Shown here: positions 9,782 through 28,551 of the stretch, in pieces | Position numbering within the stretch: position 1 is the stretch's first letter | How the letters are laid out: the number at the start of each line of letters is the position of its first letter | Source: Arenicellales bacterium | GTDB lineage: Bacteria; Pseudomonadota; Gammaproteobacteria; Arenicellales; JAJDZL01 | Assembly (NCBI GenBank): GCA_965205205.1 | Contig: CBDBFX010000002.1 | Span: 1,821,506 to 1,885,505, forward strand | Reading direction: 5' to 3' | DNA length: 64,000 nt | Made by a program: the position numbers and the translations under genes | The notes under the pieces: model-generated | Told to the model about the DNA's origin: nothing | The model's database searches: none | The model's input: only the letters and a program-made list of their open reading frames with translations

Positions 9782-9808
9782 ATCAATCGGGTAAACCGAC
9801 TCCTGATT

Positions 9809-10522: not shown

Positions 10523-10739
10523 GATTGTTCTCTCCCCTTTTTGTTTTCAGTTCAATCTTATGAACGCCATCATGGCGGAGCTGTTCAACGGTTCTAGGTT
10601 CATCGTTCCGCCTGCTGAGTGAGACTACCGACCACAAGCGCCATTTCCGGCCATTCCAACTGATGCTGGTTCAGCAGGTATTCAGAACCGATGCTGGGAA
10701 GGACCAGTGTACGGAAAGAATCTGACGGGACTGAGAGCA

Positions 10740-11213: not shown

Positions 11214-11288
11214 GTCATCATCAGCTGCCGTTCGAATTCAACCGTCATTGCAGAATGCAAGCAACAAATAGGATGGGTGAATGGACGG

Positions 11289-12713: not shown

Positions 12714-12723
12714 CGGTTCGCCT

Positions 12724-13293: not shown

Positions 13294-13327
13294 GTTTGTA
13301 CTCCAAGTAATGGTCAATGGTGATGAT

Positions 13328-14386: not shown

Positions 14387-14422
14387 GGGTTCATTCGTTC
14401 CGCATCGGGTGTTTGTCTGAGT

Positions 14423-16012
14423 TCAGGCAACTTTGGCTTTTCCTGCCCGGTTCAATTCCGTTTCCAGCGTACCGATCTGCCATTCGACATCGGTCGGTGA
14501 CACCAGACCTTTGGCGATCAGCTCGATCCCCTGCCGATTTACCGGACGACCGTTGAGGTCATTGAGCCAGTGTTGGCGGGCGCTGTGGTAGTCGCCTTTA
14601 CTGAGTCTGAAAATCATCTCCTCATCAGGTACCACTATTTCGGCCATGACCGTGCGGCCAATGACACCGCTCCCACCGCAGCTTTCGCAGTGGCCATCAC
14701 CCCGGTAACAGATTCTGGCGCTCTCCAGGCCGTGTGCTTCAACGACCGACTGCGCTCGCCGCATGCTGTTCAGGCGCCGATGATCACTGTCGCGGCGATT
14801 CCGGATCCATGCATCCGCGCGAACTTTGCAGTCGGGACACAGTTTCGGAACGAGAGCCTGAAATATCAGTCCTTTCAGTACGTCAGGCGTACACAGCAGC
14901 TTGGCGTTGATTCCAAGTCCCGTGAGGCGACCGACGATCCCGAGCGCGGTGGAAGCATGCACCGTGGTATAGACTCGGTGCCCAGACTGAGCGAATTTAA
15001 TCGTCAGCAGTCCCGACTGCAGGTCGCGAACCTCACCGACCATCAGCGTATCGGGGTCGCAGCGCAGTGCTCCACGAATCGCAAAGCTGAACTCGTCGCC
15101 GTCGATGCGTCCAATTTTCCTTATTACAGGCACCTGCGTCGCACCCGGAATGAGCCGCTCCGGCGGGTCTTCAACGGTGATGATTCGGAGCCGAAACTGA
15201 TGCATTTCGAGTTCCTCGCACAACATGCTGACAATTGATGTGCTTTTTCCACTGCCGACACCACCTGCAATGACCAAGAGACCCGATGAGCGCTGTACGA
15301 TGGTTCGAATGGCCTGAATTTGGTCCTGTTCATATCCCAATTCTTCAAGAAGCATAATGTCTTCACTGCTCGGCAACAATCGCAGCACCATGTCATAACC
15401 GTCGGGTGATGCGGGAATCGTTCCAACCCGAACGCGGACTCGTCGCCCGTTTGCGAGAATGGTGTCGGCCACCGCATCCTGAGGTTCGTGGCGGTTCCAG
15501 GTAACCGCCTGATCATGCCCCATCACCTCATAGATGAACCGGCAGGTCTGATCGGCCGTCAACTCGGTCCATTCGGCATAGCGGACAATCTGACCGCTGA
15601 TTCGGAAACTGACTTTAGCGGTTACTCGGCGGCGCACGATGTGAATGTCAGATGCTTTTTCCGCCACTGCTTTGGCTAGTAGCACGCGCACGATGTCCTG
15701 TCCTCTCTCATAATCCAGATCGGCTGTGCTTGGGTTGGCTATCTTTTCCGCATCGGCGTAGACATCTTCCAAATCACTCGGTGCCACTTCTATCTGATCG
15801 ATCACCTGTACGTTGCGTCTTTTGAGATTCTCCCGAAGCTGAGCCTTCAGTCGCGCCGGGTACTGGAGGGTCGTGAACAGAATGTAAGCGGCCGTCGGTG
15901 GCTCATCTTCCGAAACTGCAGCATAAAACATACGTTCTGACTGGTCTATCGGTACCCAGGACCCCGGGCCACCAGTCAGTACCAACTTGTATGACGGTAG
16001 ATTCGTACTCAT
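14423..16012 (-). CDS. pilQ: Type IV pilus assembly ATPase PilQ-like (GspE family)
   Basis: 529 aa. It has Walker A GGVGSGKST, a Walker B-like IITVEDPPE, and a tetracysteine cluster (CPDC ... CESCGGSG) typical of GspE ATPases. Confidence 0.9.
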   Translation of the reverse strand: MSTNLPSYKLVLTGGPGSWVPIDQSERMFYAAVSEDEPPTAAYILFTTLQYPARLKAQLRENLKRRNVQVIDQIEVAPSDLEDVYADAEKIANPSTADLDYERGQDIVRVLLAKAVAEKASDIHIVRRRVTAKVSFRISGQIVRYAEWTELTADQTCRFIYEVMGHDQAVTWNRHEPQDAVADTILANGRRVRVRVGTIPASPDGYDMVLRLLPSSEDIMLLEELGYEQDQIQAIRTIVQRSSGLLVIAGGVGSGKSTSIVSMLCEELEMHQFRLRIITVEDPPERLIPGATQVPVIRKIGRIDGDEFSFAIRGALRCDPDTLMVGEVRDLQSGLLTIKFAQSGHRVYTTVHASTALGIVGRLTGLGINAKLLCTPDVLKGLIFQALVPKLCPDCKVRADAWIRNRRDSDHRRLNSMRRAQSVVEAHGLESARICYRGDGHCESCGGSGVIGRTVMAEIVVPDEEMIFRLSKGDYHSARQHWLNDLNGRPVNRQGIELIAKGLVSPTDVEWQIGTLETELNRAGKAKVA

Positions 16013-16524
16013 TTCGATTCCGTTCCTTTCTGCTGTATTGAATGGGGAAGTCCGGATAGCCCGACTGAAATGTGATGTCCGGAAACGAGCAGATGAATGC
16101 CCCGAGGATGAACTTCGGTAACCTGCGCCAGACGGATTGAATCGCCGGCCTGCAGTCTGTATTCCCGTCCATCTAGGCGCGCGTAAGCGATCAGCGCATC
16201 CTGAGTACCGGCAATCGCATAAACTTTCAGGTTCTGATCAAACCAGTTGACGCGATCCATGCCAGGTTCCGGATCATCGGCCGATTCATCGTCAAGCACC
16301 TGTGGGGGCGGACTGTTATGGTTCAGATTCAGTTCAGAAATTTTGGCGGCCAGCTGTTGGTATTCAAGCACGCGCTGAAGTATGTCTTTTTGATTGTGAA
16401 GACAGTCCAGGAGAGCAACCGTGCCTGAGCTGTCACTGCAGGCCTGTGGGATGCCTGGGAACTGCTGGGCATGCACCGGAGGAGACGCAATGAACGCCAG
16501 GACGACGATCATTCTATTCAGCAT
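16009..16524 (-). CDS. pilP: Type IVb pilus biogenesis protein PilP-like
   Basis: The ATG at 16524 overlaps the pilO end and gives the signal peptide MLNRMIVVLAFIASPPVHA. The small periplasmic product sits between pilO and pilQ, as in R64/PAPI-1-type clusters. Confidence 0.5.
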   Translation of the reverse strand: MLNRMIVVLAFIASPPVHAQQFPGIPQACSDSSGTVALLDCLHNQKDILQRVLEYQQLAAKISELNLNHNSPPPQVLDDESADDPEPGMDRVNWFDQNLKVYAIAGTQDALIAYARLDGREYRLQAGDSIRLAQVTEVHPRGIHLLVSGHHISVGLSGLPHSIQQKGTESK

Positions 16525-17737
16525 GTGCAAAGTAGTCTGCCTCCACTTCCCAATTGAATGAATCGGCCAGTGACACCTTGACTCTGGACACGTGCAGAGG
16601 CAGATCCTGCAGACCGACTGCACTGGTGATGAGCTGATGCAGCTGACCGCCGCTCCCGCTCAGTTGCGAGCGCGTAACAGGGTATTGTTTCCCAGTAATT
16701 TTCGCCGGCTCCAGCTCCCATCGCCCGGGTAAACGGGTAAGCCGGTCCATCAGTTCAATGCGATCGTCTTTCTCATCGAGCCGCGGTTCGTATGTACTGT
16801 CATCCGGACGCACCGCCGCCATGAATGGTATTTTTTCAACGACGGCATTGGCGTGCTGGTTGAATTCGATCTGATGCCGGTCAAGATGCATCGAAATATC
16901 ATTGATGCTTCCGTGTTCGCGGTGCCAGGTGACGGAAATGACATCTTTCTGCCATTCGTATGAATGAGCTTTCCAGCCACCGGCCCGCAGCGGTCGATCG
17001 TAAATGGTATCCGCCAGTGTGGCCATCAGCGCCGGGGCATGCTGGCTGATCGTCTGCTGAACTGCGATTTTCTCCTGTTCAAAGACCTGTCTGGATGCCT
17101 GCTGGCGCAGTCGCTGTTGGCTGTTGGTGTCGGCCAGGTGGTCATAAAACAGCCAACCGCCGATGGCAACGGCCGCCAGCAGAACTGCAGACACAATGCT
17201 CTGCACCGGTTTCCTGAATTTCTGTTTACGCAGTGGCTGGCAGATGACTTCCGCAGCTGGAGTTGCCGGGCCGATCAGGTCAGCAAAATCAAGCTGCAGC
17301 GCGCCTTCAATCTGGAACACTCCGGATTTATCGTAGAACGGTATTGTTTTCCCGGCGATATCAATTCGGATTTCCACCAATCGTTCTTCGATCCGTTCCT
17401 TACTGCCAATCAGATCGCCAGCAGGGAAAACTGCGCCATCCTCTATCGTGCAGAGCCAATACAGCTCATCGGTCAACCGTTCAATCAGTATGGCCGAGCG
17501 TTGGGCTTGGGCGAGTTGCGCGGCCCCGCTTTTGTGCCCCAGATCTTCCTTTTCAGTGGTGGCCCCCAGCTGATAGCCGGCTGGAGTCTCCAATTCGAAG
17601 TAGCCGACGACTTCCTTTTCGATGGACAGAAGTTCGCGGTTTTTCCGTCGCTCGCGACCGGCCGGTGGCCACCATACGGGAGCCAGCCACATCAGTCCAA
17701 TCACGGTATCTTCATTACATAATCGATGAATCGCCAC
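16514..17737 (-). CDS. pilO: Type IVb pilus biogenesis protein PilO-like
   Basis: 407-aa ORF with a central TM helix (VQSIVSAVLLAAVAIGGWLFY), located between the secretin and pilP. The start may be the ATG at 17692. Confidence 0.5.
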   Translation of the reverse strand: MAIHRLCNEDTVIGLMWLAPVWWPPAGRERRKNRELLSIEKEVVGYFELETPAGYQLGATTEKEDLGHKSGAAQLAQAQRSAILIERLTDELYWLCTIEDGAVFPAGDLIGSKERIEERLVEIRIDIAGKTIPFYDKSGVFQIEGALQLDFADLIGPATPAAEVICQPLRKQKFRKPVQSIVSAVLLAAVAIGGWLFYDHLADTNSQQRLRQQASRQVFEQEKIAVQQTISQHAPALMATLADTIYDRPLRAGGWKAHSYEWQKDVISVTWHREHGSINDISMHLDRHQIEFNQHANAVVEKIPFMAAVRPDDSTYEPRLDEKDDRIELMDRLTRLPGRWELEPAKITGKQYPVTRSQLSGSGGQLHQLITSAVGLQDLPLHVSRVKVSLADSFNWEVEADYFAHAE

Positions 17738-19283
17738 TGTTTCTCCTCCATTGTCTACGTCCGGAAAAATCGATGCTCGGACGAATGATGTACGGTGTTA
17801 TGAGCAGTATCAAACTGGTGCGCGTCGCGGTTATCTTGGACTCGGAGCCCAAGATCTCCTTAGCTCGGGAATCATCTGTTCGAAAGGTGTCAAGTCCTGC
17901 GACGAACAGCAGTTCTCCTGAATTCAGGACCACCGGCAACAGGGCCGATCGAGATTCCAAATTGGGCAGCTGAATCACCGGATCATTGGGTCCGGCATCC
18001 TTTGGGAAACGGCTGATTTCCTTGATTCTGCTCGTTCTTACTGTCAGATTCAACATGATTCGATTGCTGTCTGGCAAGATGCGCGGCAGGACATTGATGG
18101 CGATGCCATCTTGGATTTTGCCAGGTAACAGACGCACCGCCGTCGATCCCTCCCGATTGACCACTTCCCGTCTTTCGAGATAGGAGGTCTCATCACCGAA
18201 AAACACGGGTACCGGCATCCCATTCAGTCCTCGAATGACAGTCGACGTGAGTTTCGCGACTCGGCTTTCACCGGCTGACTGGCGTAGAATGAATTCAATA
18301 TCACTGGTATCCGACTGCTGCGTCGGTGAATGCGTCAGTTGAAAGCCGAGCAGGCTGCCTGCATCGTCACTGCCAAATTTGATTCGGGCCGCGCTTTTTC
18401 CGAATGCTTTTTGCATGAAACCCGTCATGTTGAAACCCGCCGTCGCGTTTTCGCCCTGGTGAATCTCGTACAGATCCACATTGATGAGAACCTGGCTTGT
18501 CAGAGTCTGATTCTTGACCGCAACCCACTCGGCAATCCGCTGCAGCGCCATCGGTATATCAATCACGGTCAGTTCGCCTGAAAGACGGTTGATCGAAAAT
18601 TTCCCAACTTTTGACAGGAGACCGCTCAGTGACGCCTCTATCTGCTCCCAATAATCTGAAGTGTCCAAAGACACGGCGACTTGGTCCTGGGCGCGCAGGT
18701 CGGAACCACCGGAACTGCTCTGAGATGACCCTGAGAGGCCAATCGAAGCCTGCCACTTCGTATCGATTGACGGAACAAAAAGGGTCCACATACCGAGTTC
18801 AGTATGAAAAATCTCAACCTGATCGCGGCGAACACGCCAGCTGTAGCCCAATCGATCCGTAATGTGGCTCAGTGCGCCTTTAGCTGTACCATTCCAGTCG
18901 ACTGTCGGCAGTTCGATGACCTGAAGTTCTGTGGGAATGGTAATGGGCACGTCAATCTGACGGGCGATCTGACGCGTCAGTTCCAGCAGTGAAACCGGTT
19001 CAATGAAAGTGAGTTTGATCACATCGGACAGTGCCGCTGGCTCGGGGTCGGGTGAATCGACGACTTGAATCGGCGCTTGTGGACCGAGCCATGCCTGTGA
19101 ATATTCCTGTACCAGATTGGCGGCAGGTATGCTGCTTTGAGTCTGGGTCGTTTGGATGACTTCGGTTTGTACTTCATCGATGAACTCTTCGGTCACCGCA
19201 CTGATGCCGTGAGGGAGACGGCAGGCGGCAACCAGCACTGCAGAGGCCAAAATCATCATCGTATTGAAAATGCGGCTGATCAT
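17715..19283 (-). CDS. pilN: Type IVb pilus secretin lipoprotein PilN-like
   Basis: 522 aa with the lipobox LVAAC. The C-terminal secretin-like domain ends in SLILLITPYIIRP. It lies downstream of pilL. Confidence 0.75.
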   Translation of the reverse strand: MISRIFNTMMILASAVLVAACRLPHGISAVTEEFIDEVQTEVIQTTQTQSSIPAANLVQEYSQAWLGPQAPIQVVDSPDPEPAALSDVIKLTFIEPVSLLELTRQIARQIDVPITIPTELQVIELPTVDWNGTAKGALSHITDRLGYSWRVRRDQVEIFHTELGMWTLFVPSIDTKWQASIGLSGSSQSSSGGSDLRAQDQVAVSLDTSDYWEQIEASLSGLLSKVGKFSINRLSGELTVIDIPMALQRIAEWVAVKNQTLTSQVLINVDLYEIHQGENATAGFNMTGFMQKAFGKSAARIKFGSDDAGSLLGFQLTHSPTQQSDTSDIEFILRQSAGESRVAKLTSTVIRGLNGMPVPVFFGDETSYLERREVVNREGSTAVRLLPGKIQDGIAINVLPRILPDSNRIMLNLTVRTSRIKEISRFPKDAGPNDPVIQLPNLESRSALLPVVLNSGELLFVAGLDTFRTDDSRAKEILGSESKITATRTSLILLITPYIIRPSIDFSGRRQWRRNSGDSSIM

Positions 19284-20089
19284 TTTTCGGTCGGTCCCTG
19301 ATCTGGCAGGCCTGGTTCAATAACGAGAACGGAGTTGCTGCTGTAGAACTTGGCGATTAATGGGATGGGAGCGCTTCGATAGTGCTTGAGCAGTGCGCCA
19401 ACTGCGTCTACCAGTGTGCCGGCAAACGATGCAGGATGGGTGATGGCATAGTCGTGTCGAGTGCGCCATTCCAATGACCAGTCAGCTGACCGGGCCCAGT
19501 TATCCAGATTTTCCCTTAGCGTCAGAGATTTCTGTAGGGTCCATGTCGTCGGACTCGTTACGGTGGAGTCGGCGATGACTGGATCCGGGATTTCCGCGCT
19601 GTCTGATGACCCGATCAGGTCGCGGCTGATCTGAGGCTCCGGTATACCTGCCGAACTTTCAGTCGGGTGGACCGATTCAGTACCCGCGCGCTGGAACCAC
19701 AGAATGCGTTGACCTGGGTCTTCGTACAGCTGCCAGGGCTGTCCGACGATCGTTTCTATGGCGGTTTTTATATCCAGCGGTCCGATGGCGCGATGTGTCT
19801 GCGGAAGTGGCAGATTGAGAGTTGGCTGAATTTCTGCGGTCGCAACATGCCGATACCCGGAGCGATGCAGAATGTAGTCAATCGCGGCTCCCACCGTTTC
19901 GACGTGAGAAGGAAAACGGGTGTCAATGACCGCGGACAGCAGTTTCATCTGGCTGGAATCGGCGGCCAGCGAATGTAGAGAATAACGATTGACTCGCTGT
20001 ACATCTTTACCAGAGGCGATTTGCGAGTGGGCGATCAGAGCGATCGCGGCGACTGCGCCACCGCAGAATGTGAATCTCAATAATTTCAT
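19280..20089 (-). CDS. pilL: Conjugative transfer region protein PilL (TIGR03748-like)
   Basis: 269 aa with a signal peptide. The block RVNRYSLHSLAADSSQMKLLSAVIDTRFPSHVETVGAAIDYILHRSGY matches the recalled PilL N-terminal signature. It is the first gene of the pil block. Confidence 0.6.
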   Translation of the reverse strand: MKLLRFTFCGGAVAAIALIAHSQIASGKDVQRVNRYSLHSLAADSSQMKLLSAVIDTRFPSHVETVGAAIDYILHRSGYRHVATAEIQPTLNLPLPQTHRAIGPLDIKTAIETIVGQPWQLYEDPGQRILWFQRAGTESVHPTESSAGIPEPQISRDLIGSSDSAEIPDPVIADSTVTSPTTWTLQKSLTLRENLDNWARSADWSLEWRTRHDYAITHPASFAGTLVDAVGALLKHYRSAPIPLIAKFYSSNSVLVIEPGLPDQGPTEK

Positions 20090-20161
20090 TTGAGGGAGTA
20101 TGTACCAAGCTGAAGAAAAAACAACCGTTTAATTGAAAACCCGCCGAAATCAATTAAATTT

Positions 20162-21124
20162 CTAGATTTCATCGGTATCGAATCGTTCCGAATCACTGCC
20201 ATCCGATTGATCTACGAAATAATTCTCCAGGAGATAGTTTCGCGCCTTCCAGGCCGCGGCACTCGAAGCAAAGATCGCTTTATGGTCGTTCTCCAGGATA
20301 TTTACCCAATCAAGGACGTAGGATTCATGGTGCAGTTCGCCGAGTATGTGAAAGTCCGCACACAGAAACGCCGAGCCAATTTCAGCGATCAGTTCTTCCC
20401 GGGCGTAGCCAGCCGATCGAAAGGGATAGGGTTCGACGATGCCGATACGGTTCAATCTGTTCTTGTGGCCAGTCCAGTGAGTCAGTTCATGCATCAGTGT
20501 GCTGTAGTATCCACCGGTTGAATCGAAGGCGGCTTTGGGTGGCATGCAGATGACATCCGATTCAGGGAAGTAAGTGGCCGCTGAGCCAGTATGGCGGATT
20601 TTCGCACCGCAGCATCTGATCAGTTCGTCAGCGCGGCGATGGGATTGCCAGTCGTGTTTCCGCGTCTGTACAGGATGCTCGCCTGTAACAATCCTGTTCG
20701 GCAGTCCGGTGCACTGATGAACATTGAATAGAGTGAATGCGCGGGCGATCTTGTAGGTCTGGCAAAAGGGTTGGTTGTCCTCGTCGCCAGCTTCATTGGA
20801 GGTTGATTGACGGGTGACGTCGATTTTCTTGAACAGGACCGCAATGGTCCCCTTTTCTCCTTTGCGAACCGTGCCGCCAAGTTTTTTGGCCTGTCGGAAT
20901 GACAGCCAGCGATCGTATTCGTAGCCGTGGGTGATGGCGGCCGCCCAGAGAATCGTTACATTGACTCCGGTATACCGACGCTCAGTACCGGCGTTGACTG
21001 GAAAGCCCGGTGTGAGTGAACTTTCCGACCAGGGTTTTCGCCAGGGTGGCGCACCATTGTTCAGTGCGTCGATAAAAACTTTGGTAACTTTGGTAAATAC
21101 GCTTTGGGAATGGGTAGAAGTCAT
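20162..21124 (-). CDS. ardC: ArdC-like antirestriction protein (ssDNA-binding N-domain plus zincin metalloprotease domain)
   Basis: 320 aa. The N-terminal motif is ALNNGAPPWRKPW (DUF1738-type) and the C-terminal domain has the HELTHWTGH zinc motif. Confidence 0.85.
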   Translation of the reverse strand: MTSTHSQSVFTKVTKVFIDALNNGAPPWRKPWSESSLTPGFPVNAGTERRYTGVNVTILWAAAITHGYEYDRWLSFRQAKKLGGTVRKGEKGTIAVLFKKIDVTRQSTSNEAGDEDNQPFCQTYKIARAFTLFNVHQCTGLPNRIVTGEHPVQTRKHDWQSHRRADELIRCCGAKIRHTGSAATYFPESDVICMPPKAAFDSTGGYYSTLMHELTHWTGHKNRLNRIGIVEPYPFRSAGYAREELIAEIGSAFLCADFHILGELHHESYVLDWVNILENDHKAIFASSAAAWKARNYLLENYFVDQSDGSDSERFDTDEI

Positions 21125-21278
21125 TTCATATTTTCCGTTCGATGGTTGAATTTGCGATCAAAAAATAATTTGATCTGCAACCAATTCGGTCAAAAAACTG
21201 AAAATCGGTTTGGTGGTCATTTCGTCGACCCGGCGACTCAATGACTCGGTCGCGGCGACCGGTGGGAAGTTTTGCCGC

Positions 21279-21299
21279 GCTGGCGGCTGGGATTCGAAC
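21279..21299 (-). other. tRNA 3'-end-like 21-mer (T-loop, T-stem and acceptor arm), possible att-type remnant
   Basis: The minus strand reads GTTCGAATCCCAGCCGCCAGC, which parses as a TTCGAAT T-loop, a 5-nt stem half and a 7-nt acceptor half. The 5' T-stem partner and the rest of a tRNA are absent. Confidence 0.3.
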
Positions 21300-21321
21300 T
21301 ATAGAAAGCAGAACATTGGCA

Positions 21322-22596
21322 TCAGCTGCTGTTCTTCATTGCGCGCTCCAATGTTCGCTGCTCATATCTTCGTCGAACTTCGTCGAGCAGTTCTCGGTTG
21401 GTTTCGCCCTCGGTCCGCTGCTCGTATACAAGTTCCGCATTTTCGATTTGAAACTGTCCATTCTCTTTCAGCCCGATTCCGTTCTCTATGAGTCGTTTAC
21501 AGTAGGTTGACATCAGTGAGACCGGATTCCAGACTGGCGTGCACTTCTTGGCCAATCCCGCTTTGATTCGACCGTCAAGTTCATCTAGGAGAAGTTGGTG
21601 CCAGGATTGCCATGGCTTTGGAACTTCCGGCAGATGATCGGGTAGGCGTTTCAGGTTGAGTTCAATCAGCTGCTTCTGGTTCTCCGTTACCGAATCCGGA
21701 AACACCAGATGAACGTCAGGCTTTGAATTTTCCTGACCGTTCATTTTGTGGTAGTGGTTATTTTTTACTACTTCCTTACTACTACTAGTATTACTTGACA
21801 GGTGGTCAGTGCGAACTGGGCTGGCAGTCTGATCTTCATCCAGGTTATTGATATTGCCGTAGTTCATCTCGTGAACTACGGTGTTTTTCAACGAACTGCC
21901 GTGGCATAGACCGTCTGCATTGCCATATTGAGATTCGGCGTCTGCGAGATTGGGATAGCTGCCGAAGAAACTGTTTTCGGTATCGCCACTGACAGCCATC
22001 CAGGCTTCCGCCCGTCTTTCAAATGGGTGTTTGTGCTCCATGACATTCTGCCCCAATTCGATTTCGTGGCGCAGTGAGCTCAGGATCAGCTCGGCTATTT
22101 TCCGTACGTCTGAATTCCGGTGTTTTCGGCAGTCGTTCACATATCCCATGTAATTGGTGTCCAACGCGAACGTATCTGTCAAATTCAAAGGTTCGCCATG
22201 CACCATATAGATGTTGCCGTCGCGAACAAATTGGCCGGATTCATCGCGTTCCCGTTCCCGAGACAGCAGCGTTATCCAGCGTGTCATGCGCAGTTTTGCT
22301 ATGGAACTGGAAACGGTTCCCCGCGAAATGCTGAGCAGCGACTGAATTTCGCTGTAGCTGGGAAAGGAAGCCATTGACATATCCGGCGTACAACGGGATC
22401 GAATGGCGAGCCAGACCAGTTTGTCATAGGGGTTGAGTACCGGGTCAAAAATCAGAAGACGAGGATGGGAATCGTACCAGTTGTCCGTAAAGACCATGCC
22501 GGTCGAGGTGGAATCAATCTGGCGAAAGTTCTTCGCGGCGGAAAGAATTCTAGACAGATCGAGATCAATCGATTTGGATTCAGGTTTGTTCATCAT
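21322..22596 (-). CDS. STY4528-like genomic-island replication protein (winged-helix)
   Basis: 424 aa with the HTH-like segment SYSEIQSLLSISRGTVSSSIAKLRMTRWITLL. It follows the parB and DUF2857-like genes, as in SPI-7/PAPI-1-type islands. Confidence 0.5.
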   Translation of the reverse strand: MMNKPESKSIDLDLSRILSAAKNFRQIDSTSTGMVFTDNWYDSHPRLLIFDPVLNPYDKLVWLAIRSRCTPDMSMASFPSYSEIQSLLSISRGTVSSSIAKLRMTRWITLLSRERERDESGQFVRDGNIYMVHGEPLNLTDTFALDTNYMGYVNDCRKHRNSDVRKIAELILSSLRHEIELGQNVMEHKHPFERRAEAWMAVSGDTENSFFGSYPNLADAESQYGNADGLCHGSSLKNTVVHEMNYGNINNLDEDQTASPVRTDHLSSNTSSSKEVVKNNHYHKMNGQENSKPDVHLVFPDSVTENQKQLIELNLKRLPDHLPEVPKPWQSWHQLLLDELDGRIKAGLAKKCTPVWNPVSLMSTYCKRLIENGIGLKENGQFQIENAELVYEQRTEGETNRELLDEVRRRYEQRTLERAMKNSS

Positions 22597-22711
22597 GGAC
22601 TTCGCATCAGGTCAATCAATATTCGGAGTCGCGTTCGCTCACAGCCGCCGCCGCCGAAGGGTATGGACGATTGTGGGAGATAGATCGGACTCGGCACTGA
22701 GAAATTGGCTG

Positions 22712-23284
22712 CTATTTGAGTGAGCCATCACTTTCCCACTCTTGGATCAGGATCCAGATCGTTCGAAGCGAAACCTCACGCTTTAGCGAATTGAAGATAT
22801 CCAGAAATTCTTGGGGTCCAAGGCTGGTCGAGTTCTGTAAGGTTTTTTCTACTGCTTTCCAGACGGTTTTCTCAACTTCTACAGTCGGTTGGGGAGGGCG
22901 GCCTGAAGGTATGGCAAGAGCCGGCAACCCCATTTGTATTCGCTTGATTCTGAATTGTTTGTTGCTGATGCCGGCGAGCGAATACATCAGTTTTGGTGGC
23001 GCATCACATCTGATCAGTTCATTGATCACTCCTTCCTTTGCCCTTTCCTTGAGAATGTAGTCAATCATCCGCCAGTAAATCTTGCAATTCAGTTTGATGG
23101 TCAGGAAGTGCGATTTCATTGATGCCAGACGTAATGTGTCGGCGGATGAGAGTGAGCTCAGGGCGCGAATCTCGCTTGGACCAAACCCCATTTCATAGAG
23201 TGCGTCGTAATCGCCTTCTTCCTCGCAGCGGTGGAAGAAAACCACAATTGATTTGATCAGTTCAGCTTCTTTGTTTAGGGACAT
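22712..23284 (-). CDS. DUF2857 / STY4526-like island protein
   Basis: The ATG at 23284 has GAGGAA 7 nt upstream, and the gene overlaps the parB end. The product is about 190 aa and sits directly downstream of the ICE parB. Assigned by synteny. Confidence 0.5.
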   Translation of the reverse strand: MSLNKEAELIKSIVVFFHRCEEEGDYDALYEMGFGPSEIRALSSLSSADTLRLASMKSHFLTIKLNCKIYWRMIDYILKERAKEGVINELIRCDAPPKLMYSLAGISNKQFRIKRIQMGLPALAIPSGRPPQPTVEVEKTVWKAVEKTLQNSTSLGPQEFLDIFNSLKREVSLRTIWILIQEWESDGSLK

Positions 23285-24971
23285 TTGATTTTCCTCTTCT
23301 GTTGGGCGGTTGAAAAATATGTACATTGTTTTCTGTCGCCAGTTGATGAATACTGTGATAGGTGTCTATCAGATCAAGCAAGCTGTTCCGGGTGTCATTG
23401 TCCAACTGTCTGAGACAGAAGCTGAACAATCTCAGATGTGGAACGTTGCATTTCATCTTTCCTTTCGCATGGAAAGACAGTGATTTAATATCACCCGATT
23501 TAATGAAATGGATCAGACCCGTGTTACCGATCAGTTTCGCGGTGAATGGACGGGCGCATTCGACCGCCCATTGCAGATCAGAGAATTCCAGTAGCAGCCA
23601 CCATAGCGCGTCGCGGGTCGCAATCACACTGGGTGCCACGCGCTCGACGGGTGGTGGGTAGTCAGCAACAAGATAACCCATACCCCAATCACCGGTATTC
23701 AATACAATCCTTCGCTTCGTTTCAGGACTGTTCAGGAATCTGTAGTTTTTTGCGATTCGCGATGCGGCCTTAAAGGCCGTCGTCTTCAGCTCTTTGAACC
23801 GCAGGTCCAGTGCAGTCTGCTGAGATGACAGGGCAGCTGTTGCGGGTGATGGCTTATCAGGCCGTGGCCGATTGCTCTGATTCTCCCGCGTTGATGGTAC
23901 ATCTTGAGACTCTTCTGTTATTCCGGTCGACCGTTTGTCATCATGAATTGGAACGTTAGTCTCAGTTGATATATTGTCTGATGCAGTGTCGACTTCGGGC
24001 TTAACTTCGACAGGCCCGGGATGAAGAAGCTGATGCTGTTCGAGCTTGACCAATTCGGGATAGATTCTGTCGAAAGATTCCTCTAGCGGAACAGGCGACA
24101 GATTGAGATATCCATCCAGTCGCAGTGAGACATCCTGAATTGAAGCTGTAACTTCGGCGGTCAGGTTCGCTTCCAATGAACGGCGGAACGTTTTGTAATT
24201 CCATTCTGATTCTGGGAAATCGATTAGGGACTGCTTGAACAGTTGGTTGGCTTCGTTTTCTGATTTGTCGAATTCCTTACACACACTGGTAAACGCCTTT
24301 TGGATTTTGCGCAGATTCTGAATGGGTCTGCGTCCCATCGTTTCACAGGCATCTGATGACAGGTAGGGCTCCACCATGTCGGAAGCATAAAGCATGATGG
24401 AAAGTGAACTCAGCGTCAGACTGTAACCTTTTGCGATGAGCCTTGTGTGACATTCGCGGATTGACAATTCCTCATTTTCTTCTGACTCAATCTGTAGCAG
24501 GTCGATAGCGGACTTTATTCCAGCAGATTTATCAATGAAACACAATGATTTTCGCATCTCGTTTTCCTGTAGATGACCAATGACGGCATCGGACTCATTA
24601 CCGGACCAGGGAATAAAGGAACACTCAACGAATCTGAATCTGTGATCTCCGGTTTCAGCAAACAGTTCTTTAATCGCTTTCAATCTTGTATTGCCTCCTT
24701 TGTAGACAATGAAATCGTCTTTATCAGGACGACGGGTCACAACGAGTGGCTGATTGAGCCCATCTTTGAAGATTGATTCTTTAATCTTGCCATAGTTAGG
24801 ATTGTTGCGCCTGCGCGGATTGTTTTCGTATGGCTGAACGCGGGATATCGGAAGATAAACCAATGCCCGCTCGTTCAGTGAGTTCAGAGCTGTCGCATTG
24901 CGCGAAGTTTTGGTGCCAAGGCTGGTTGACCGTATTGGATTGACTTTTTCGGCTAACGAATGGTCTTGCAA
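23262..24971 (-). CDS. parB: ICE ParB-family protein (PFGI-1 class, TIGR03764-like)
   Basis: 569 aa. The N-terminal ParB/Srx box reads LPISRVQPYENNPRRRNNPNYGKIKESIFKDGLNQPLVVTRRPDKDDFIVYKGGNTRLKAIKEL. The long C-terminal extension is typical of the ICE class. The ORF-track start is TTG. Confidence 0.85.
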   Translation of the reverse strand: MQDHSLAEKVNPIRSTSLGTKTSRNATALNSLNERALVYLPISRVQPYENNPRRRNNPNYGKIKESIFKDGLNQPLVVTRRPDKDDFIVYKGGNTRLKAIKELFAETGDHRFRFVECSFIPWSGNESDAVIGHLQENEMRKSLCFIDKSAGIKSAIDLLQIESEENEELSIRECHTRLIAKGYSLTLSSLSIMLYASDMVEPYLSSDACETMGRRPIQNLRKIQKAFTSVCKEFDKSENEANQLFKQSLIDFPESEWNYKTFRRSLEANLTAEVTASIQDVSLRLDGYLNLSPVPLEESFDRIYPELVKLEQHQLLHPGPVEVKPEVDTASDNISTETNVPIHDDKRSTGITEESQDVPSTRENQSNRPRPDKPSPATAALSSQQTALDLRFKELKTTAFKAASRIAKNYRFLNSPETKRRIVLNTGDWGMGYLVADYPPPVERVAPSVIATRDALWWLLLEFSDLQWAVECARPFTAKLIGNTGLIHFIKSGDIKSLSFHAKGKMKCNVPHLRLFSFCLRQLDNDTRNSLLDLIDTYHSIHQLATENNVHIFQPPNRRGKSNVPKQRS

Positions 24972-25021
24972 AGTTACACCTATTGCTGGATGAATGAAAT
25001 AAGAAAAGAGATGATCCTACA

Positions 25022-27028
25022 TCAAACAATTCGATTTGGTACCGCAGACTTTGATTTTTCGTCCGTATTTACAACCATCTGCACGGTTTTCAGTACGTCG
25101 TTGCAACTCATAAAACAGCGCGGCCCATTTGGTGGGAATTGGATTGTGGCTAGCATGTCGCGTGTACCAGACCGAATCCATGAGTCTGCCGAAAAATTGG
25201 TGTTTACCAGGTAAACACTGCAGAAATGCCTGTATTCCGAGGCGGGCTGACTCATTGGTTGGAGTGAAAATGGGGTGTTTACCAGGTAAACACTCAGGAA
25301 AAGTCTGATATTTGTGTTGGCGGATGGTCCGCGGCTCAGGTCGATCGCTCCTACAGACAGGTCTACAGCTGCGGATGCCATTGTCAGTAGTAAGTCTCGA
25401 ATATTTAGGAATAAGTGATGATGATGCCGTATCCCACCGCCACCGACCGACCATTCAGGCCGAGGTTGACAGTGATCGAAAGCAGTCCCAATTTGGACAT
25501 CAGAAGCTAATGGTGGACCGGGTGGAATGATGGTGCATGTTGAAATGTCGCGTGTTTCAGATCGAATCTTTGAATTTTCAGAAAAATGGGTGTTTACCAG
25601 GTAAACACTGCAGAAATGCCTGTATTCCGCGCCGGGCAGACTCATTGATCGGTGTGAAAATGGAGTGTTTACCAGGTAAACACTCAGGACAAGCCCGGTA
25701 TTTGTGTTGGTGGATGGCCCCTGGCTCGGGCTTGTCGGTCCTGTTGATCGGTCTCCAGCTGCGGATGCCAATGTCGGCGGCAAGTCTCGAATATTTAGGA
25801 ATAAGTGGTGATGATGTCGTGTCCCACCGCCACCGATCGACCGTTCAGGAAGAGGCTGACACCGGTCGAAAGCAGTCCCTATTTGGACATCAGAAGCCAA
25901 TGGTGGGCCGGGTGGAATGATGGTGCATGTTGAAATGTCGCGTGTGCCAGACCGAATCCCTGAGTTTTCAGAAAAACGGGTGTTTACCAGGTAAACACTG
26001 CAGAAAGGCCTGTATTCCGCGCCGCGCAGACTCATTGATCGGTGTGAAAATGGAGTGTTTACCAGGTAAACACTCAGGAAAAGCCCGGTATTTGTGTTGA
26101 TGGATGGCCCGCGGCTCGGGCTCGTCGGTCCTGTTGACCGGTCTCCAGCTGCGGATGCCAATATCGGCAGTAAGTCTCGAATATTTAGGAATAAGTGGTG
26201 ATGATGTCGTATCCCACCGCCACCGATCGACCGTTCAGGCAGAGGCTGACACCGGTCGAAAGCAGTCCCTATTTGGACATCAGAAGCCAATGGTGGGCCG
26301 GGTGGAATGATGATGTATGTTGAAATGTCGCGTGTGCCAGATCGAATCTCTGAATTTTCAGAAAAACGGGTGTTTACCAGGTAAACACCCCTGCAATGAC
26401 TGAATTTGGCACACGCGATCCCTCCAACATTCCAATTGAATGGTTGATTTGAACCGTAGTCAATTGTTAGACTCGCCTTAGCAGAATCAGTGGATTTCCC
26501 GTGCAGGATTTGAGCCATCGGCAGTAAACCTTGCCGTCGGGTCTTTGAAATTTGCTCAGGACTTATTTCTGGATGATGAAACAGGAAGATTAGAATCAAT
26601 GGTCTGAGCACACCGGTGCATTGAGGATGGAAGTCAATCTCAATGAAACGAACTGAAGTTGAATTTGGTGTGGAACTCAAGATTTTGCCGTGTTTTTTAT
26701 TAAGTTCTAAGAATGTCCGAGTGCACACATACCTGTCAGTTAAACGTTGATCCCGTTTGCTTTCTAGCAGGTGGACAGGCAGGTTGATACCGATTCGATC
26801 TGGCGAGTGGAAACAAAGATAGCGTTTGGTTGTGAAATGTATGCGTACAACGAAAATGGAACAGTATTTCTGTTCTGTCCCAAAAATGTAGAATCTGACC
26901 GGTGCATGGAGATTCAACAGCACAATGTACTCATTCAGTCTGTACTCAGCAGAGCGGATGACGGCAGAGTCGGCGAATGAGACTTCTGTCTCAAATTCAC
27001 GGTTGGTGGATATAATTACCATTGACAT
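25022..27028 (-). CDS. Doubtful 668-aa ORF: a unique AT-rich N-terminal part (about 27028-26400) read through the tandem array
   Basis: The frame stays open because 390 bp equals 130 codons. Unit-to-unit changes are mostly non-synonymous (11 or more aa changes from about 19 nt changes). Composition is odd (HHHH, many Cys) and no SD precedes the ATG. The unique part contains HSPDRIGINLPVHLLESK, a PD..ExK-like spacing. Confidence 0.2.
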   Translation of the reverse strand: MSMVIISTNREFETEVSFADSAVIRSAEYRLNEYIVLLNLHAPVRFYIFGTEQKYCSIFVVRIHFTTKRYLCFHSPDRIGINLPVHLLESKRDQRLTDRYVCTRTFLELNKKHGKILSSTPNSTSVRFIEIDFHPQCTGVLRPLILIFLFHHPEISPEQISKTRRQGLLPMAQILHGKSTDSAKASLTIDYGSNQPFNWNVGGIACAKFSHCRGVYLVNTRFSENSEIRSGTRDISTYIIIPPGPPLASDVQIGTAFDRCQPLPERSIGGGGIRHHHHLFLNIRDLLPILASAAGDRSTGPTSPSRGPSINTNTGLFLSVYLVNTPFSHRSMSLRGAEYRPFCSVYLVNTRFSENSGIRSGTRDISTCTIIPPGPPLASDVQIGTAFDRCQPLPERSIGGGGTRHHHHLFLNIRDLPPTLASAAGDRSTGPTSPSQGPSTNTNTGLVLSVYLVNTPFSHRSMSLPGAEYRHFCSVYLVNTHFSENSKIRSETRDISTCTIIPPGPPLASDVQIGTAFDHCQPRPEWSVGGGGIRHHHHLFLNIRDLLLTMASAAVDLSVGAIDLSRGPSANTNIRLFLSVYLVNTPFSLQPMSQPASEYRHFCSVYLVNTNFSADSWIRSGTRDMLATIQFPPNGPRCFMSCNDVLKTVQMVVNTDEKSKSAVPNRIV
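25125..26390. repeat. Tandem array, 390-bp unit x about 3.25, with seven identical 19-bp palindromes
   Basis: GTGTTTACCAGGTAAACAC (8-bp arms, CAG centre) starts at 25200, 25275, 25590, 25665, 25980, 26055 and 26370. That is a period of 390 bp with 75 bp within each pair. Units 2 and 3 differ at about 19 of 390 positions. Unit 1 is more diverged (7 of 56 in the inter-palindrome spacer), yet all palindromes are identical. Confidence 0.95.
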
Positions 27029-27285
27029 TAATTAATTTGTTGATCCAGATTGATGTCGATTTGTAGTCAAACAGAGAAAATTTGAGTCCCAATCAGTTTT
27101 TCTGAGACATCTTTTGCCAATTCTTGACTGTTCAAGAGTGGTTCTGCGGCTGGCATGAAAGGACTCGGTCAGGTGTCGCGAGACAACAGAAATTGGTGAT
27201 TGACCCCTCCTTTCTGCCGGTTGCTATTTCCGTTTATTGTCGGGATGGTGGTGAAGGAATACGCTTAAGCAGGAATCTTCCGAAA

Positions 27286-27335
27286 GCGTCATTTTGATTT
27301 TCAGCTTGCCGGCGCGAAAATCGGCTAAAGCGAAT
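27286..27335 (+). promoter_or_regulatory. Candidate SAM-II-like pseudoknot riboswitch in the metZ leader
   Basis: GATTTT (27296-27301) pairs with AAAATC (27317-27322). The loop contains AGCTTG and the 3' tail contains TAAAGC, which can pair with the loop GCTT. This is the H-type architecture recalled for SAM-II, and it sits 45 nt upstream of a methionine-biosynthesis gene. Confidence 0.35.
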
Positions 27336-27378
27336 GCTATTCGGTTTGCCGGTTGTAGTGCGCGGCTAGATATTCAGT

Positions 27379-28551
27379 ATGAAAAATTTCCGGCAAAAAA
27401 CTAAGGCGGTGAGAGTTGGGCAAGTTCGAACTGCTGAAAGGGAGCACAGCGACCCAATTTTCGCAACCTCAAGTTTCGTATTTGACAGTGCCGAGCACGC
27501 CGCGCAGATGTTCGCCGAACAAAGTTCCGGCAATATTTATTCCAGATTCACCAATCCTACGACACGTGCGTTTGAGGAACGTCTCGCCAGCCTTGAGAAT
27601 GCGCGTTTCTGTAGTGCAACGGCATCGGGAATGTCAGCAATCCTAGCTCTCTGCATGAGCACTCTTCACGCCGGTGATCGGATTGCCGCGACCAGGGGGC
27701 TGTTCGGTTCTACAGTTAATTTGTTTTCCAATGTCCTGACGCGGTTCGCAGTTGCGACGAGCTTCTATTCGCCAAGCGAAATCTGTTCCACCCAGCTTGA
27801 CCCCGCAACGCGTATTATTTTTATTGAAACTCCATCGAACCCAATCTGTGAAATTGTTGATATCGCCCGATTGGGGAAAATTGCCAAAGCACTTCCCAAC
27901 TGCATTTTGGTCGTTGATAACTGCGCCTGTACGCCCATCTTACAACAGCCACTGATGCTCGGTGCCGATGTTGTCATTCATTCGTCGACCAAATATCTGG
28001 ACGGTCAGGGTCGGGCGGTCGGTGGTGCAGTGGTCACCGATAATGCTGAGCTGGCGAAAGCAGTGCATGGCTTTCTGCGTACCGCGGGTCCTTCGATGAG
28101 TCCATTCAACGCATGGATTTTTCACAAAGGTCTCGAGACCCTGTCGGTTCGGATGAAGGAGTCCTGTTTAAACGCGACGAAAATTGCCAGCTGGCTGAAA
28201 GTTCAGCCAAGTGTAAACCGGGTGTACTATCCCGGATTGGAAGATCATCCCGGACACGAACTTGCCAGCCACCAGCAGAATGACTTCGGAGCACTGCTGT
28301 CTTTTGAATTGCAGGGTGGTAAAACAGCTGCGTGGAAATTTATTGATGGAGTACGTGTTTTTTCAGTTACCGGCAATTTGGGAGATGTGAAAAGCACCAT
28401 TACGCATCCTGCATCAACGACCCATTCGAGAGTGCAGGGGTCCGACCGAAAGCGGATGGGAATCAGTGATGGTCTGATTCGGCTTTCGATTGGCCTGGAA
28501 GACATTGATGATCTGATCGACGACCTGCAGTCTGCCATGGACTCCATCTGA
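27379..28551 (+). CDS. metZ: O-succinylhomoserine sulfhydrylase (PLP-dependent, Cys/Met metabolism family)
   Basis: 390 aa. The N-terminus RTAEREHSDPIFATSSFVFDSAEHAAQMFAEQSSGNIYSRFTNPTTRAFEERLASLE is MetZ-like, and the PLP lysine context STKYLDGQG is present. Confidence 0.85.
   Translation: MKNFRQKTKAVRVGQVRTAEREHSDPIFATSSFVFDSAEHAAQMFAEQSSGNIYSRFTNPTTRAFEERLASLENARFCSATASGMSAILALCMSTLHAGDRIAATRGLFGSTVNLFSNVLTRFAVATSFYSPSEICSTQLDPATRIIFIETPSNPICEIVDIARLGKIAKALPNCILVVDNCACTPILQQPLMLGADVVIHSSTKYLDGQGRAVGGAVVTDNAELAKAVHGFLRTAGPSMSPFNAWIFHKGLETLSVRMKESCLNATKIASWLKVQPSVNRVYYPGLEDHPGHELASHQQNDFGALLSFELQGGKTAAWKFIDGVRVFSVTGNLGDVKSTITHPASTTHSRVQGSDRKRMGISDGLIRLSIGLEDIDDLIDDLQSAMDSI

Follow-up and report, generated by a model that had tools for sequence, protein, structure and literature searches.

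We find that a tandem array in the window (the whole stretch of DNA analysed here, 64 kb long) carries seven identical copies of a perfect palindrome, and that the ParB-like protein encoded downstream probably has its cognate sites here, an equivalent of bisS or parS through which, by analogy with the element ICEclc, transfer genes would be controlled. A ParB loading array is the best-supported reading, because the dyad appears to be under selection, is associated with the gene and has arms that changed in a compensatory manner. We describe the sites, their conservation and co-variation, their exclusive association with the gene, the architecture of the encoded protein and the absence of ParA.

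Results

A single array was reported in the window by Tandem Repeats Finder, with a period of 390 bp, 3.2 copies, 90% matches and 0 indels (25155..26388, unstranded; about 1.2 kb), and every complete unit contains a pair of core palindromes spaced 75 bp apart. Aligned in register, the units are 86–95% identical within the array, with background-level identity outside it, and the final base of the array is the final base of palindrome 7. The core palindrome is GTGTTTAC-CAG-GTAAACAC, with an AT-rich stem in which 3 of 8 pairs are G-C. An exact search for the 19-mer GTGTTTACCAGGTAAACAC gave exactly seven occurrences, with starts at 25200, 25275, 25590, 25665, 25980, 26055 and 26370 and with dyad spacings of 75 and 315 bp. 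Core site 1 (25200..25218) is the nearest to the gene, 246 nt upstream of the start of the bisD-like ORF, and on the minus strand CAATTTTTC comes next; core sites 2 (25275..25293) and 5 (25980..25998) are exact matches to the 19-mer, and core site 3 (25590..25608) has the flank AAAAATGG-GTGTTTAC. Arms of 10 bp are present at core site 4 (25663..25685; GAGTGTTTAC-CAG-GTAAACACTC), at core site 6 (26053..26075), which has the same arms as site 4, and at core site 7 (26368..26390; GGGTGTTTAC-CAG-GTAAACACCC). The seven sites, none of which has a strand, span 246–1416 nt upstream of the ORF start. Beyond the array the 64-kb window holds 0 copies of the 19-mer at up to three mismatches (shuffles expect 0), and the 8-mer half-sites were not found in the window outside the array.

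The units have diverged: of the 390 positions, 18 are different between units 2 and 3 and 53 between units 1 and 2, the latter including 7 of the 56 positions of the inter-site spacer. Outside the palindromes 63 of 352 columns vary (18%), against 0 of 38 within them, and with this amount of variation the invariance of all 38 palindrome columns by chance has P ~6e-4. An earlier note on this DNA had described a 390-bp unit repeated about 3.25 times directly upstream of parB, seven identical 19-mers at these starts, 10-bp arms on copies 4 and 6 and about 19 differences between units 2 and 3; our searches agree, with copy 7 added to those that have the longer arms. Its argument for selection on the palindrome is strengthened by the probability above and by the comparison with a related locus given below. 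An assembly artefact was considered and rejected, because the units are diverged, unlike collapsed or expanded assembly copies, and because a separate ENA contig (ERZ26693861 ctg27138, locus L017) matches window positions 27094..23675 with 0 mismatches and 9 indels and has the same array with all seven sites.

The downstream gene (23262..24971, minus strand; start codon uncertain) encodes a BisD-type ParB-like protein of 569 aa, which matches TIGR03764 with 200.9 bits against a cut-off of 143.75. In an alignment of 33 homologues the CTP-pocket motifs, G93-N-T-R96 and E136-N-E-M-R140, are invariant, and a helix-turn-helix lies at about residues 171–203. The AlphaFold2 model has a disordered linker of 66 aa (residues 317–382, pLDDT <50) followed by a separate, mostly helical C-terminal domain (residues 383–557, pLDDT ~90). 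Foldseek matched the protein to ParB-CDP (7bnk, 6sdk), Noc and KorB (8qa8, 8qa9) with E = 2e-6 to 1e-4, the matches in the PDB being restricted to the N-terminal ~250 columns, and a word-seeded homologue search returned only relatives at least 36% identical and three distant ParB_N proteins. The 3′ end of the gene is overlapped by a DUF2857 gene (22712..23326, minus strand; PF11198, E = 2.1e-26), the candidate BisC-type partner, and a DUF2857 gene follows the parB homologue in all 19 related loci that we compared. From these predicted features, the downstream "parB" is better described as a BisD-type protein with a BisC-type partner; its presumed orthology with the BisD of ICEclc is argued from the family model, from motifs and domain architecture and from the DUF2857 gene beside it rather than from a direct protein alignment.

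Downstream of the array, genes of ICEclc/PFGI-1 type, the presumed target region, occupy 219..22596, all on the minus strand. They include an STY4528-family gene, ArdC, type IVB pilus genes (PilL2, PilN, an ATPase and others) and the type IV secretion genes TIGR03744 TraC, TIGR03746, 03749, 03751, 03752, 03756 and RAQPRD, so the array and the bisD/bisC-type pair stand at the head of >24 kb of co-directional transfer genes. The far side is bounded by a divergent housekeeping gene, metZ (27379..28551, plus strand; NF006003, 578 bits), which encodes O-succinylhomoserine sulfhydrylase and neighbours the parB homologue in 17 of the 19 related loci. The element occupies the same chromosomal place in 17 of the 19, and its divergence tracks that of metZ. 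Judged by these comparisons, the element seems to have descended vertically as part of the chromosome and may no longer be a transferring ICE.

A palindrome of the form GTGTT-N9-AACAC accompanies the homologous gene in 18 of the 19 related loci (L011 and L020 have degenerate versions), and across these loci it is confined to the parB homologue. The looser pattern TGTT-N9-AACA has 41 matches in the 410,736 nt of the window and the 19 related loci. All 33 of those that are perfect palindromes lie upstream of or inside the parB homologue, and the number of imperfect matches (8) is about that expected by chance (6.3). Every site found is a perfect DNA palindrome, free of asymmetry of the G-T type.

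The part of the parB homologue that encodes the linker contains the site in L006–L011, L019, L020, L022 and L023, in L011 and L020 as a degenerate version, and at this place the consensus of the 33-sequence family reads VYxVNT. On the evidence of the deep branches, most of which keep parA, this linker-coding region of the bisD-type gene itself is the predicted ancestral position of the site. Upstream sites, some 250–300 bp before the gene, occur in one derived clade, in 1, 2, 3, 4 or 7 copies, and parA has been lost in most of its members including the window; the site nearest to the ORF start is 173–304 nt away in all ten loci of the upstream type. Since a hidden Markov model (HMM) of the array unit of L018 matches only the site cassette of ~80 bp, at upstream and internal sites alike, we consider the two kinds of site to be homologous.

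How little else is kept is seen when the window is compared with L001. The ParB proteins are 62% and the MetZ proteins 77% identical, and in the 2-kb gap between parB and metZ, otherwise unalignable, only the 19-mer and a few flanking bases are shared; between lineages in general the inter-site sequence is without conservation. Copies of the site within L001 differ in the orientation of the central base, and this, together with the perfect dyads, is as predicted for a symmetric dimer that reads duplex DNA. L002, L003, L012 and L013 each have two copies of GTGTTCGC-N3-GCGAACAC, in which both arms have changed together from TAC/GTA to CGC/GCG, and this clade is the only one with T186P, I192T and L194H in the predicted recognition helix. 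The co-variation of helix-turn-helix and site is consistent with the model but is not statistical proof, as it represents one evolutionary event in one clade. An analogous array of three 369-bp (123-codon) units is present in L018, within a called gene of 413 aa, and palindromes of a second type, TGCACCA-N3-TGGTGCA, flank the core in L018, L004 and L010. In L023 the palindrome extends to 41 bp and has the core site 3 flank AAAAATGG on both sides. The comparison of loci supports the view that the palindrome itself is under selection and is tied to the adjacent ParB-family gene.

Discussion

In ICEclc of Pseudomonas the BisD–BisC pair is known as a transcriptional activator of transfer genes, with bisS as its loading sites, and not as a segregation protein (Carraro et al., 2020, PMC7423338; Antar et al., 2025, PMC12409273). 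Loading of BisD takes place at the two perfect inverted repeats of bisS; BisD hydrolyses CTP in the presence of this DNA and spreads about 50 kb in the direction of transcription, and promoter activation requires both BisD and BisC (PMC12409273). The protein of the window is like BisD in having a ParB-like N-domain with GNTR and ENxxR motifs (G92NTR95 and E136NELR140 in BisD; PMC12409273), a disordered linker (~70 aa in BisD) and a separate C-terminal domain; that of BisD (BisDact) is likewise helical and is not known to have structural relatives. Immediately downstream of both genes lies a DUF2857 partner, as reported for BisC (PMC7423338), and the conjugative backbone is of the same class. 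In both elements, furthermore, two or more perfect inverted repeats lie close to the gene pair, inside transcribed or open-frame DNA and upstream of a long block of co-directional transfer genes. On the other hand, the sequence of the window site is unrelated to that of bisS (GAGCTATCCCCnGGGGATAGCTC), and its arms are 8–10 bp with a 3-nt spacer, whereas those of bisS are 11 bp with a 1-nt spacer. The seven window sites are arrayed in tandem, upstream of the bisD-type gene, whereas the two of ICEclc are in inrR and ssb, downstream of bisDC and 2 kb from each other; the window lacks alpA-parA-shi upstream, and its element is apparently fixed beside metZ across many species. Binding, stimulation of the CTPase and spreading have been demonstrated for ICEclc BisD, and for the protein of the window they are predicted by association and analogy.

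The earlier note had likened the half-site to that of chromosomal parS (TGTTNCACGTGAAACA), which in Bacillus subtilis has one copy inside spo0J/parB. In sequence the likeness is confined to the outer TGTT...AACA bases; the perfect dyad, the ParB/Noc-fold N-domain of the protein and what would ancestrally have been one copy within the parB gene are also shared. It does not extend to the geometry, since the dyad covers 17 bp between the outer T and A and has a spacer of 3 nt, as opposed to 16 bp and none, or to the inner arm bases, and an extra C-terminal domain replaces the C-terminal dimerisation domain of ParB; the window has 0 matches to canonical parS at up to two mismatches. KorB of plasmid RK2 also serves partition with IncC (ParA), whereas the window has no ParA. 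KorB at its OB sites, acting with KorA, is nevertheless similar in being a ParB-fold CTP clamp that regulates genes with a partner and has several palindromic loading sites per element. Its repression is short-range, and the 12 OB sites are scattered over the plasmid (PMC12409273 and general knowledge) and not arranged in tandem as those of the window are.

The earlier note had also suggested a centromere or ParB loading array. The loading array stands, but a classical ParABS centromere, that is a parS cluster that maintains the excised, replicating element in the two daughter cells, is unlikely because the window is without ParA: tblastn with four ParA proteins of related loci (E < 1) found neither ParA nor a remnant of it in the 64 kb, and the ParA family was not found among the annotated ORFs of the window. 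Tandem units that each bear a dyad are typical of plasmid centromeres, and in sopC of F there are 12 units of 43 bp, each with an inverted repeat that is bound by SopB. The array resembles sopC in its tandem dyad-bearing units beside a ParB-family gene whose product, with its ParB fold, is predicted to bind them, but its units are 390 bp with two dyads, there is no ParA partner and the sequence between the sites drifts freely. ParA (AAA_31/CbiA) is encoded directly upstream of parB in L006–L011 and L018–L020, where the site is in or beside parB as in many ParABS operons; it was not found in L001–L005, L012 and L013 by tblastn with the same four proteins, and the copy number of the site is highest (2, 4, 7) in loci that lack ParA, although L018 has ParA and 3 sites. 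Moreover, the parA beside bisD in ICEclc works together with Shi to arrest growth, independently of ParB (PMC6812849), and BisD is needed there for promoter activation (PMC12409273). Finally, a centromere would not be needed by an element that is inherited vertically in the chromosome, as this one appears to be.

We consider it very unlikely that the sites belong to a different protein, be it as an iteron or origin array of the STY4528 family, as operators of the DUF2857/BisC type or as sites of a host factor. It is true that a gene for an STY4528-family "pathogenicity island replication protein" lies 2.5 kb from the array, that origins typically have repeated units close to replication genes, and that the TGCACCA-N3-TGGTGCA palindromes beside the core in three loci suggest further proteins on the cassette. 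Still, the repeated element is a perfect dyad and not one of the short direct repeats by an initiator gene that characterise iterons, and the 390-bp units are not conserved between lineages, which speaks against the iteron-type maintenance site that the earlier note had offered. Across the 19 loci the site tracks parB and not the STY4528-family gene, which contains a different conserved palindrome of its own, CCGTAGTTCA-N5-TGAACTACGG (21857..21881 in the window); this second palindrome could be the true loading site or a further one. The BisC motif of ICEclc, a weak inverted repeat with 12-bp spacing at promoters (PMC12409273), is unlike the window site, and in an unsystematic look we noticed neither an AT-rich unwinding element nor a DnaA-box pattern.

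The ORF listing and its translation contain an open frame of 668 codons (ORF668; 25022..27028, minus strand, that of bisD) that spans the whole array and was missed in the earlier note, as was the fact that 390 bp is exactly 130 codons. If it were a gene, ORF668 would encode a protein of three 130-aa repeats and the palindrome would be kept as code for VYLVNT, each core site being translated as (S/G)-V-Y-L-V-N-T. Its openness exceeds chance, since a run of 344 open codons as observed was reached in 0 of 5000 Markov simulations of the de-duplicated sequence. All ten upstream-type loci likewise have long frames in the sense of parB, with the site read in the same frame, that stop 30–110 nt before parB; ORF coverage of the sense strand is above simulations in all ten (per-locus p 0.000–0.05), and the array of L018 lies in a called gene. 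Yet ORF668 is without a signature of protein coding. It has no Pfam or NCBIfam match, and its only homologues among 5.8e9 clustered proteins and 1.84e9 representatives are its own fragments. In codon log-likelihood ratio it scores −0.027 per codon, 4 SD below the real genes of the window (0.112 ± 0.034), and substitutions between units fall on codon positions 1, 2 and 3 in numbers of 14, 27 and 22, with a synonymous to non-synonymous ratio of 30:70 that is like that of other frames. Between type-B loci the dN/dS of the open frame is 0.84–0.87, as opposed to 0.10–0.13 for parB at equal dS, and the spacing of sites in the four type-B loci (415, 417, 416 and 416 bp) does not preserve the reading frame. 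The products from different lineages are similar neither to one another nor to BisD outside the site, and a peptide motif would require neither a perfect DNA dyad nor identical synonymous positions. A repeat-protein gene is thus highly improbable.

Action at the level of RNA, with hairpins that attenuate or terminate the bisD leader transcript or with units that each encode a structured small RNA, as in the RNA array that the earlier note had raised as its alternative, hardly seems tenable, for although a minus-strand T-run comes after four sites (25200, 25590, 25980 and 26370), which resemble weak terminator hairpins (6 terminator-like sites observed in the region against 2.6 expected), and although the second helix flagged in that note does contain one compensatory pair, the T-run is missing at L004, L005 and L006–L010 and is symmetric in L023 (AAAAAATGG...CCATTTTTT), hence part of an extended DNA palindrome, Rfam gives no match at gathering thresholds or at E <= 1, RNAalifold gives covariation of about zero (+0.04 on the plus and +1.9 on the minus strand, from three sequences and so with low power) with many broken pairs, only the dyad is conserved between lineages, the stem is AT-rich, the central base flips in L001, and in many relatives the site is within the coding region of parB.

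We favor the reading in which the seven palindromes are loading sites of the BisD-type protein, and by analogy with ICEclc BisD we infer binding, clamp loading, sliding and a regulatory output. Dimers of the ParB-like protein would recognise the dyad GTGTTTAC-N3-GTAAACAC, close as CTP-bound clamps and then slide off the site. The clamps would travel mainly with transcription into the pilus and type IV secretion genes, which lie co-directionally over >24 kb, and could there co-activate promoters at which the BisC-type partner is bound. Seven sites within 1.2 kb would make the array a high-capacity, multi-copy loading platform, which may have grown by unequal recombination of a unit of ~370–420 bp that was already present in the common ancestor of the clade.

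It is conceivable, though doubtful, that loading sites of this clamp family need DNA that is both transcribed and translated. Behind this thought lie the observations that the cassette sat ancestrally in codons of the disordered linker of bisD and moved to an upstream open frame in the derived clade, that the arrays have periods divisible by three (390 and 369 bp), and that the amino acids drift neutrally (dN/dS ~0.85). If it were true, frames like ORF668 would be "translation-only" ORFs that lead RNA polymerase and ribosomes across the loading platform, and this traffic would either drive the clamps in a single direction, into the transfer genes, or shield the 2-kb leader from Rho-dependent termination. 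The increase from one to seven sites would then be a compensation or retuning after the loss of ParA, and the setting would be an ICE-derived conjugation-pilus module that is vertically inherited beside metZ across Arenicellales.

Results

Tandem Repeats Finder reported one array only in the window, at 25155..26388, where a 390-bp period is repeated 3.2 times with 90% matches and without indels, which confirms the tandem array of about 390-bp units described in the earlier note. The seven identical palindromes claimed there were likewise recovered: there are exactly seven copies of the 19-mer GTGTTTACCAGGTAAACAC, starting at 25200, 25275, 25590, 25665, 25980, 26055 and 26370, and no further copy was found elsewhere in the 64-kb window at up to three mismatches (shuffles expect 0). 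Between units 2 and 3 there are 18 differing positions, close to the 19 or so first counted, and between units 1 and 2 there are 53, seven of which fall in the 56-position inter-site spacer, as had been noted. Of the 352 columns that do not belong to a palindrome, 63 are variable, and the probability that all 38 palindrome columns would be invariant is about 6e-4, in agreement with the proposed selection on the palindrome itself. Arms of 10 bp, previously ascribed to copies 4 and 6, are present at both, and copy 7 has them as well. The possibility of an assembly artefact is countered by the divergence of the units and by a separate ENA contig of the same array (L017; ERZ26693861 ctg27138), which has all seven sites and aligns to window 27094..23675 with 0 mismatches and nine indels. 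Neither a canonical parS nor an enrichment of half-sites was found in the window. A helical-phase reading of the 75-, 315- and 390-bp spacings (at 10.5 bp/turn, 315 bp makes 30.0 turns) received no support from the other loci and was set aside as numerology.

The neighbouring parB gene (minus strand, 23262..24971) scores above the curated cut-off of TIGR03764, which is the ParB family of PFGI-1-class ICEs. In ICEclc the gene once called parB has been renamed bisD, and its partner BisC carries DUF2857 (PMC7423338). ICEclc BisD, a CTP clamp of the ParB-like kind, has G92NTR95 and E136NELR140 motifs and a linker of ~70 aa followed by an activation domain at the C-terminus; its loading takes place at bisS, which consists of two perfect inverted repeats, and it spreads ~50 kb in the direction of transcription and activates BisC-bound promoters (PMC12409273). 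GNTR and ENEMR stand at the equivalent positions of the window protein, and its AlphaFold2 model shows a confident N-domain, disorder at 317-382 and a confident C-domain; it is like ICEclc BisD in its GNTR/ENxxR motifs, disordered linker, separate C-domain and DUF2857 partner gene. Foldseek matched Noc, ParB-CDP and KorB, with the N-domain only, and a sequence search of the PDB gave only a marginal match to Spo0J (E = 0.15), so that it took the fold comparison to bring out the ParB relationship. Together, the motifs, the modelled domains and the Foldseek matches identify the predicted protein as BisD-type, a likely counterpart of ICEclc BisD by motifs, architecture and DUF2857 partner. The earlier assignment as parB stands at the level of family, by TIGR03764 and the ParB fold, but a BisD-type gene with a DUF2857 partner is the better description.

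After parB follow the DUF2857 gene, an STY4528-family gene, ArdC, type IVB pilus genes and PFGI-1/ICEclc-type type IV secretion genes, and these transfer-type genes are all on the minus strand, reaching position 219. The other flank of the array holds a divergently oriented metZ and then housekeeping genes. As there is no tRNA gene in the 64-kb window, no tRNA-type attachment site is visible in it; no integrase was seen in the window, and a sigma-70 promoter scan of 24800..27500 gave 0 matches. A stretch of 63% G+C with strong GC skew lies at 43001-44000, where long open frames overlap, 42778..44247 on the plus strand with 42642..43307, 43123..43908 and 43665..44141 on the minus strand.

We compared 19 related loci, 13 from a genome scan, all Arenicellales metagenome-assembled genomes, and six from contig look-ups. 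In all 19, parB is followed by the DUF2857 gene, and in 17, namely L001-L013, L018, L019, L021 and L022, the ICE-like module (bisD, bisC, the STY4528-family gene, ArdC, PilL2, PilN and others; window 219..28551) adjoins metZ. Thirteen of these 17 loci are from different Arenicellales species, and across them the identity of module proteins to the window is correlated with MetZ identity (r = 0.94), which suggests long vertical inheritance or domestication of the module rather than repeated insertion. Transposase_31 (Rpn/PDDEXK-type) genes are inserted near metZ, beside the element, in L019 (2454..3542) and L021 (509..1507).

The search in relatives proposed by the earlier note, for the palindrome next to TIGR03764-type parB genes, found perfect palindromes only at the parB homologue. 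The loose pattern TGTT-N9-AACA has 41 matches in the 410,736 nt of the window and the 19 loci; 33 of these are perfect palindromes, every one upstream of or inside a parB homologue, and the eight imperfect ones equal the chance expectation. On the deep branches of the ParB tree, there is one site ~1 kb into the gene, in codons of the disordered linker and translated as VY(S/T)VNT; this is the majority state in the 33-sequence family alignment, the site is degenerate in L011 and L020, and most of these loci keep parA directly upstream. One derived clade lacks the internal site and has its sites upstream, the nearest 173-304 nt before the ORF. Here L018 retains parA and carries a 369-bp tandem array with three sites, and parA is absent from the loci with one (L004, L005 and L021), two (L002, L003, L012 and L013), four (L001) and seven upstream sites (the window). 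An HMM of the L018 unit matched upstream and internal sites alike, but only over a cassette of ~80 bp, and on this sequence evidence we regard the two as homologous. Between the window and L001, the dyad alone is conserved in the gap, and proteins of the flanking genes are 62-77% identical. A metagenome scan for GTGTTTACCWGGTAAACAC gave three single sites on G+C-rich contigs, on which no ParB, ParA or other element genes were found; the scan therefore added no new relatives, and the three are most likely unrelated single events.

The dyad has the form GTGTTTAC-N3-GTAAACAC in the window class and GTGTTCGC-N3-GCGAACAC in the L002 group, where both arms have changed and the dyad is kept. The substitutions T186P, I192T and L194H, which fall in the predicted recognition helix, are found in the L002 group alone. 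In L020 (Acidiferrobacterales), an asymmetric hybrid, TGTTCGC-AGT-GTAAACA, lies at 2187..2203, a linker position ~1010 nt into parB; as it has one half-site of each arm type, it may be an intermediate in the specificity change.

Further palindromes were observed near the element. A second conserved and perfect one, CCGTAGTTCA-N5-TGAACTACGG, lies inside the STY4528-family "replication protein" gene of the window (21857..21881) and of most relatives. Copies in relatives are at L004 13015 and 7117; L007 13041 and 13092; L009 12921 and 7524; L018 8070; L019 8106; L020 4319-4350; and L021 2368. In L004, L009 and L021 an extra copy just past the 3′-end of metZ means that this gene is bracketed by element-type sites. 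The palindrome may represent an origin, the boundary of the element or an additional site of loading. Several relatives have, on either side of the core dyad, TGCACCA-N3-TGGTGCA or TTGCACAA-N-TTGTGCAA, forming a three-part cassette of ~80-90 bp (L018 3930..4010 and its repeats; L004 9594..9675; L010 10925..11013, wholly within bisD linker codons), and the window units have only a single TGCACCA half-site ~55 nt from one core. A third conserved palindrome, AAACCTGATTAAGACTCAGGTTT, occurs in the divergent region beside the metZ start in many relatives (L001 8394; L002 8070; L003 8560; L012 8586; L013 8551; L018 2836; L022 4477) and is absent from the window at up to three mismatches; its role may be that of an operator, either of metZ or of the upstream promoter of the element.

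Discussion

We suggest that the dyad is most likely the cognate site of the BisD-type protein and the array a multi-copy loading platform heading the co-directional transfer genes. By analogy with ICEclc, the protein would recognize the dyad, close as a clamp in a CTP-dependent manner, slide with transcription and co-activate together with the DUF2857 partner. The kind of site is known, namely the bisS/parS-type sites of ParB-like CTP clamps; the site sequence, its organization in a tandem array and the informative evolutionary series are new. The earlier proposal of a ParB loading array or a centromere/iteron site thus survives in its first part, as the dyad is tied to parB. A classical centromere is unlikely since the window is without ParA; for the ancestral system, which had ParA, an additional role in segregation is plausible. 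A reading of the gap as a decayed parA was rejected, as tblastn with related ParA proteins found no remnant. Its ORFs are unlike Shi, an 85-aa HicA-like protein (PMC6812849), and were rejected as shi homologues.

That the array is instead the gene of a repeat protein, encoded by the 668-codon frame ORF668 (25022..27028, minus strand), we consider improbable. An open run like that over the array was reached in 0 of 5000 simulations, and two gene callers annotate the frames over sites as hypothetical proteins. Against this, codon usage of ORF668 is 4 SD below that of real genes, dN/dS is ~0.85 in relatives versus ~0.1 for parB, and the site spacing breaks the frame in the type-B loci, four loci with two sites ~416 bp apart. 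No homologues were found in a search of 5.8e9 proteins or by exhaustive phmmer against 1.84e9 representatives, there is no Pfam/NCBIfam match, and codon-position substitutions and the BisD-profile and lineage comparisons also speak against a conserved protein. All ten upstream-type loci nevertheless have long sense-strand frames that read the site in one frame, always as VYxVNT or, for the CGC/GCG variant, VRTANT, and that end 30-110 nt ahead of bisD (for example L018 3727..4968, L021 3948..4958, L004 8647..9888 and L001 8455..9790). As these frames stay open while the encoded sequences evolve neutrally, unconstrained and without homologues, either translation itself matters or the openness is a relic of the origin of the cassette in the bisD linker.

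The structured-RNA alternative of the earlier note is more improbable still. T-runs make four sites resemble weak terminators; they are not conserved, being missing at L004-L010, and in L023 are part of a 41-bp DNA palindrome. Rfam was empty at gathering and permissive thresholds, no covariation was detected among the three sequences compared, in L001 the central base switches orientation, and relatives have sites inside coding sequence. An iteron origin we reject, as the element is a dyad that follows parB and the STY4528-family gene has a palindrome of its own.

To our knowledge, experiments have defined the loading sites of such BisD-type clamps in one element only, ICEclc, in 2025. The window sites, GTGTTTAC-N3-GTAAACAC, represent a second, sequence-unrelated class of candidate BisD-type loading site. 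As the CGC/GCG arm variant comes with matching changes in the recognition helix, it offers natural specificity-swap material for how the clamp reads DNA. Loci with 1, 2, 3, 4 or 7 sites, with or without ParA, could show whether site number sets clamp loading, or the strength or probability of transfer-gene activation. That the cassette can shift out of the gene of the clamp itself and into an array upstream of it gives a rule for finding sites in ICEclc/PFGI-1/SPI-7-class elements, those of pathogens included. Finally, from its fixed position and its divergence in step with metZ, the conjugation module appears to be a long-term and possibly domesticated resident of a marine lineage that is known chiefly through metagenome-assembled genomes.
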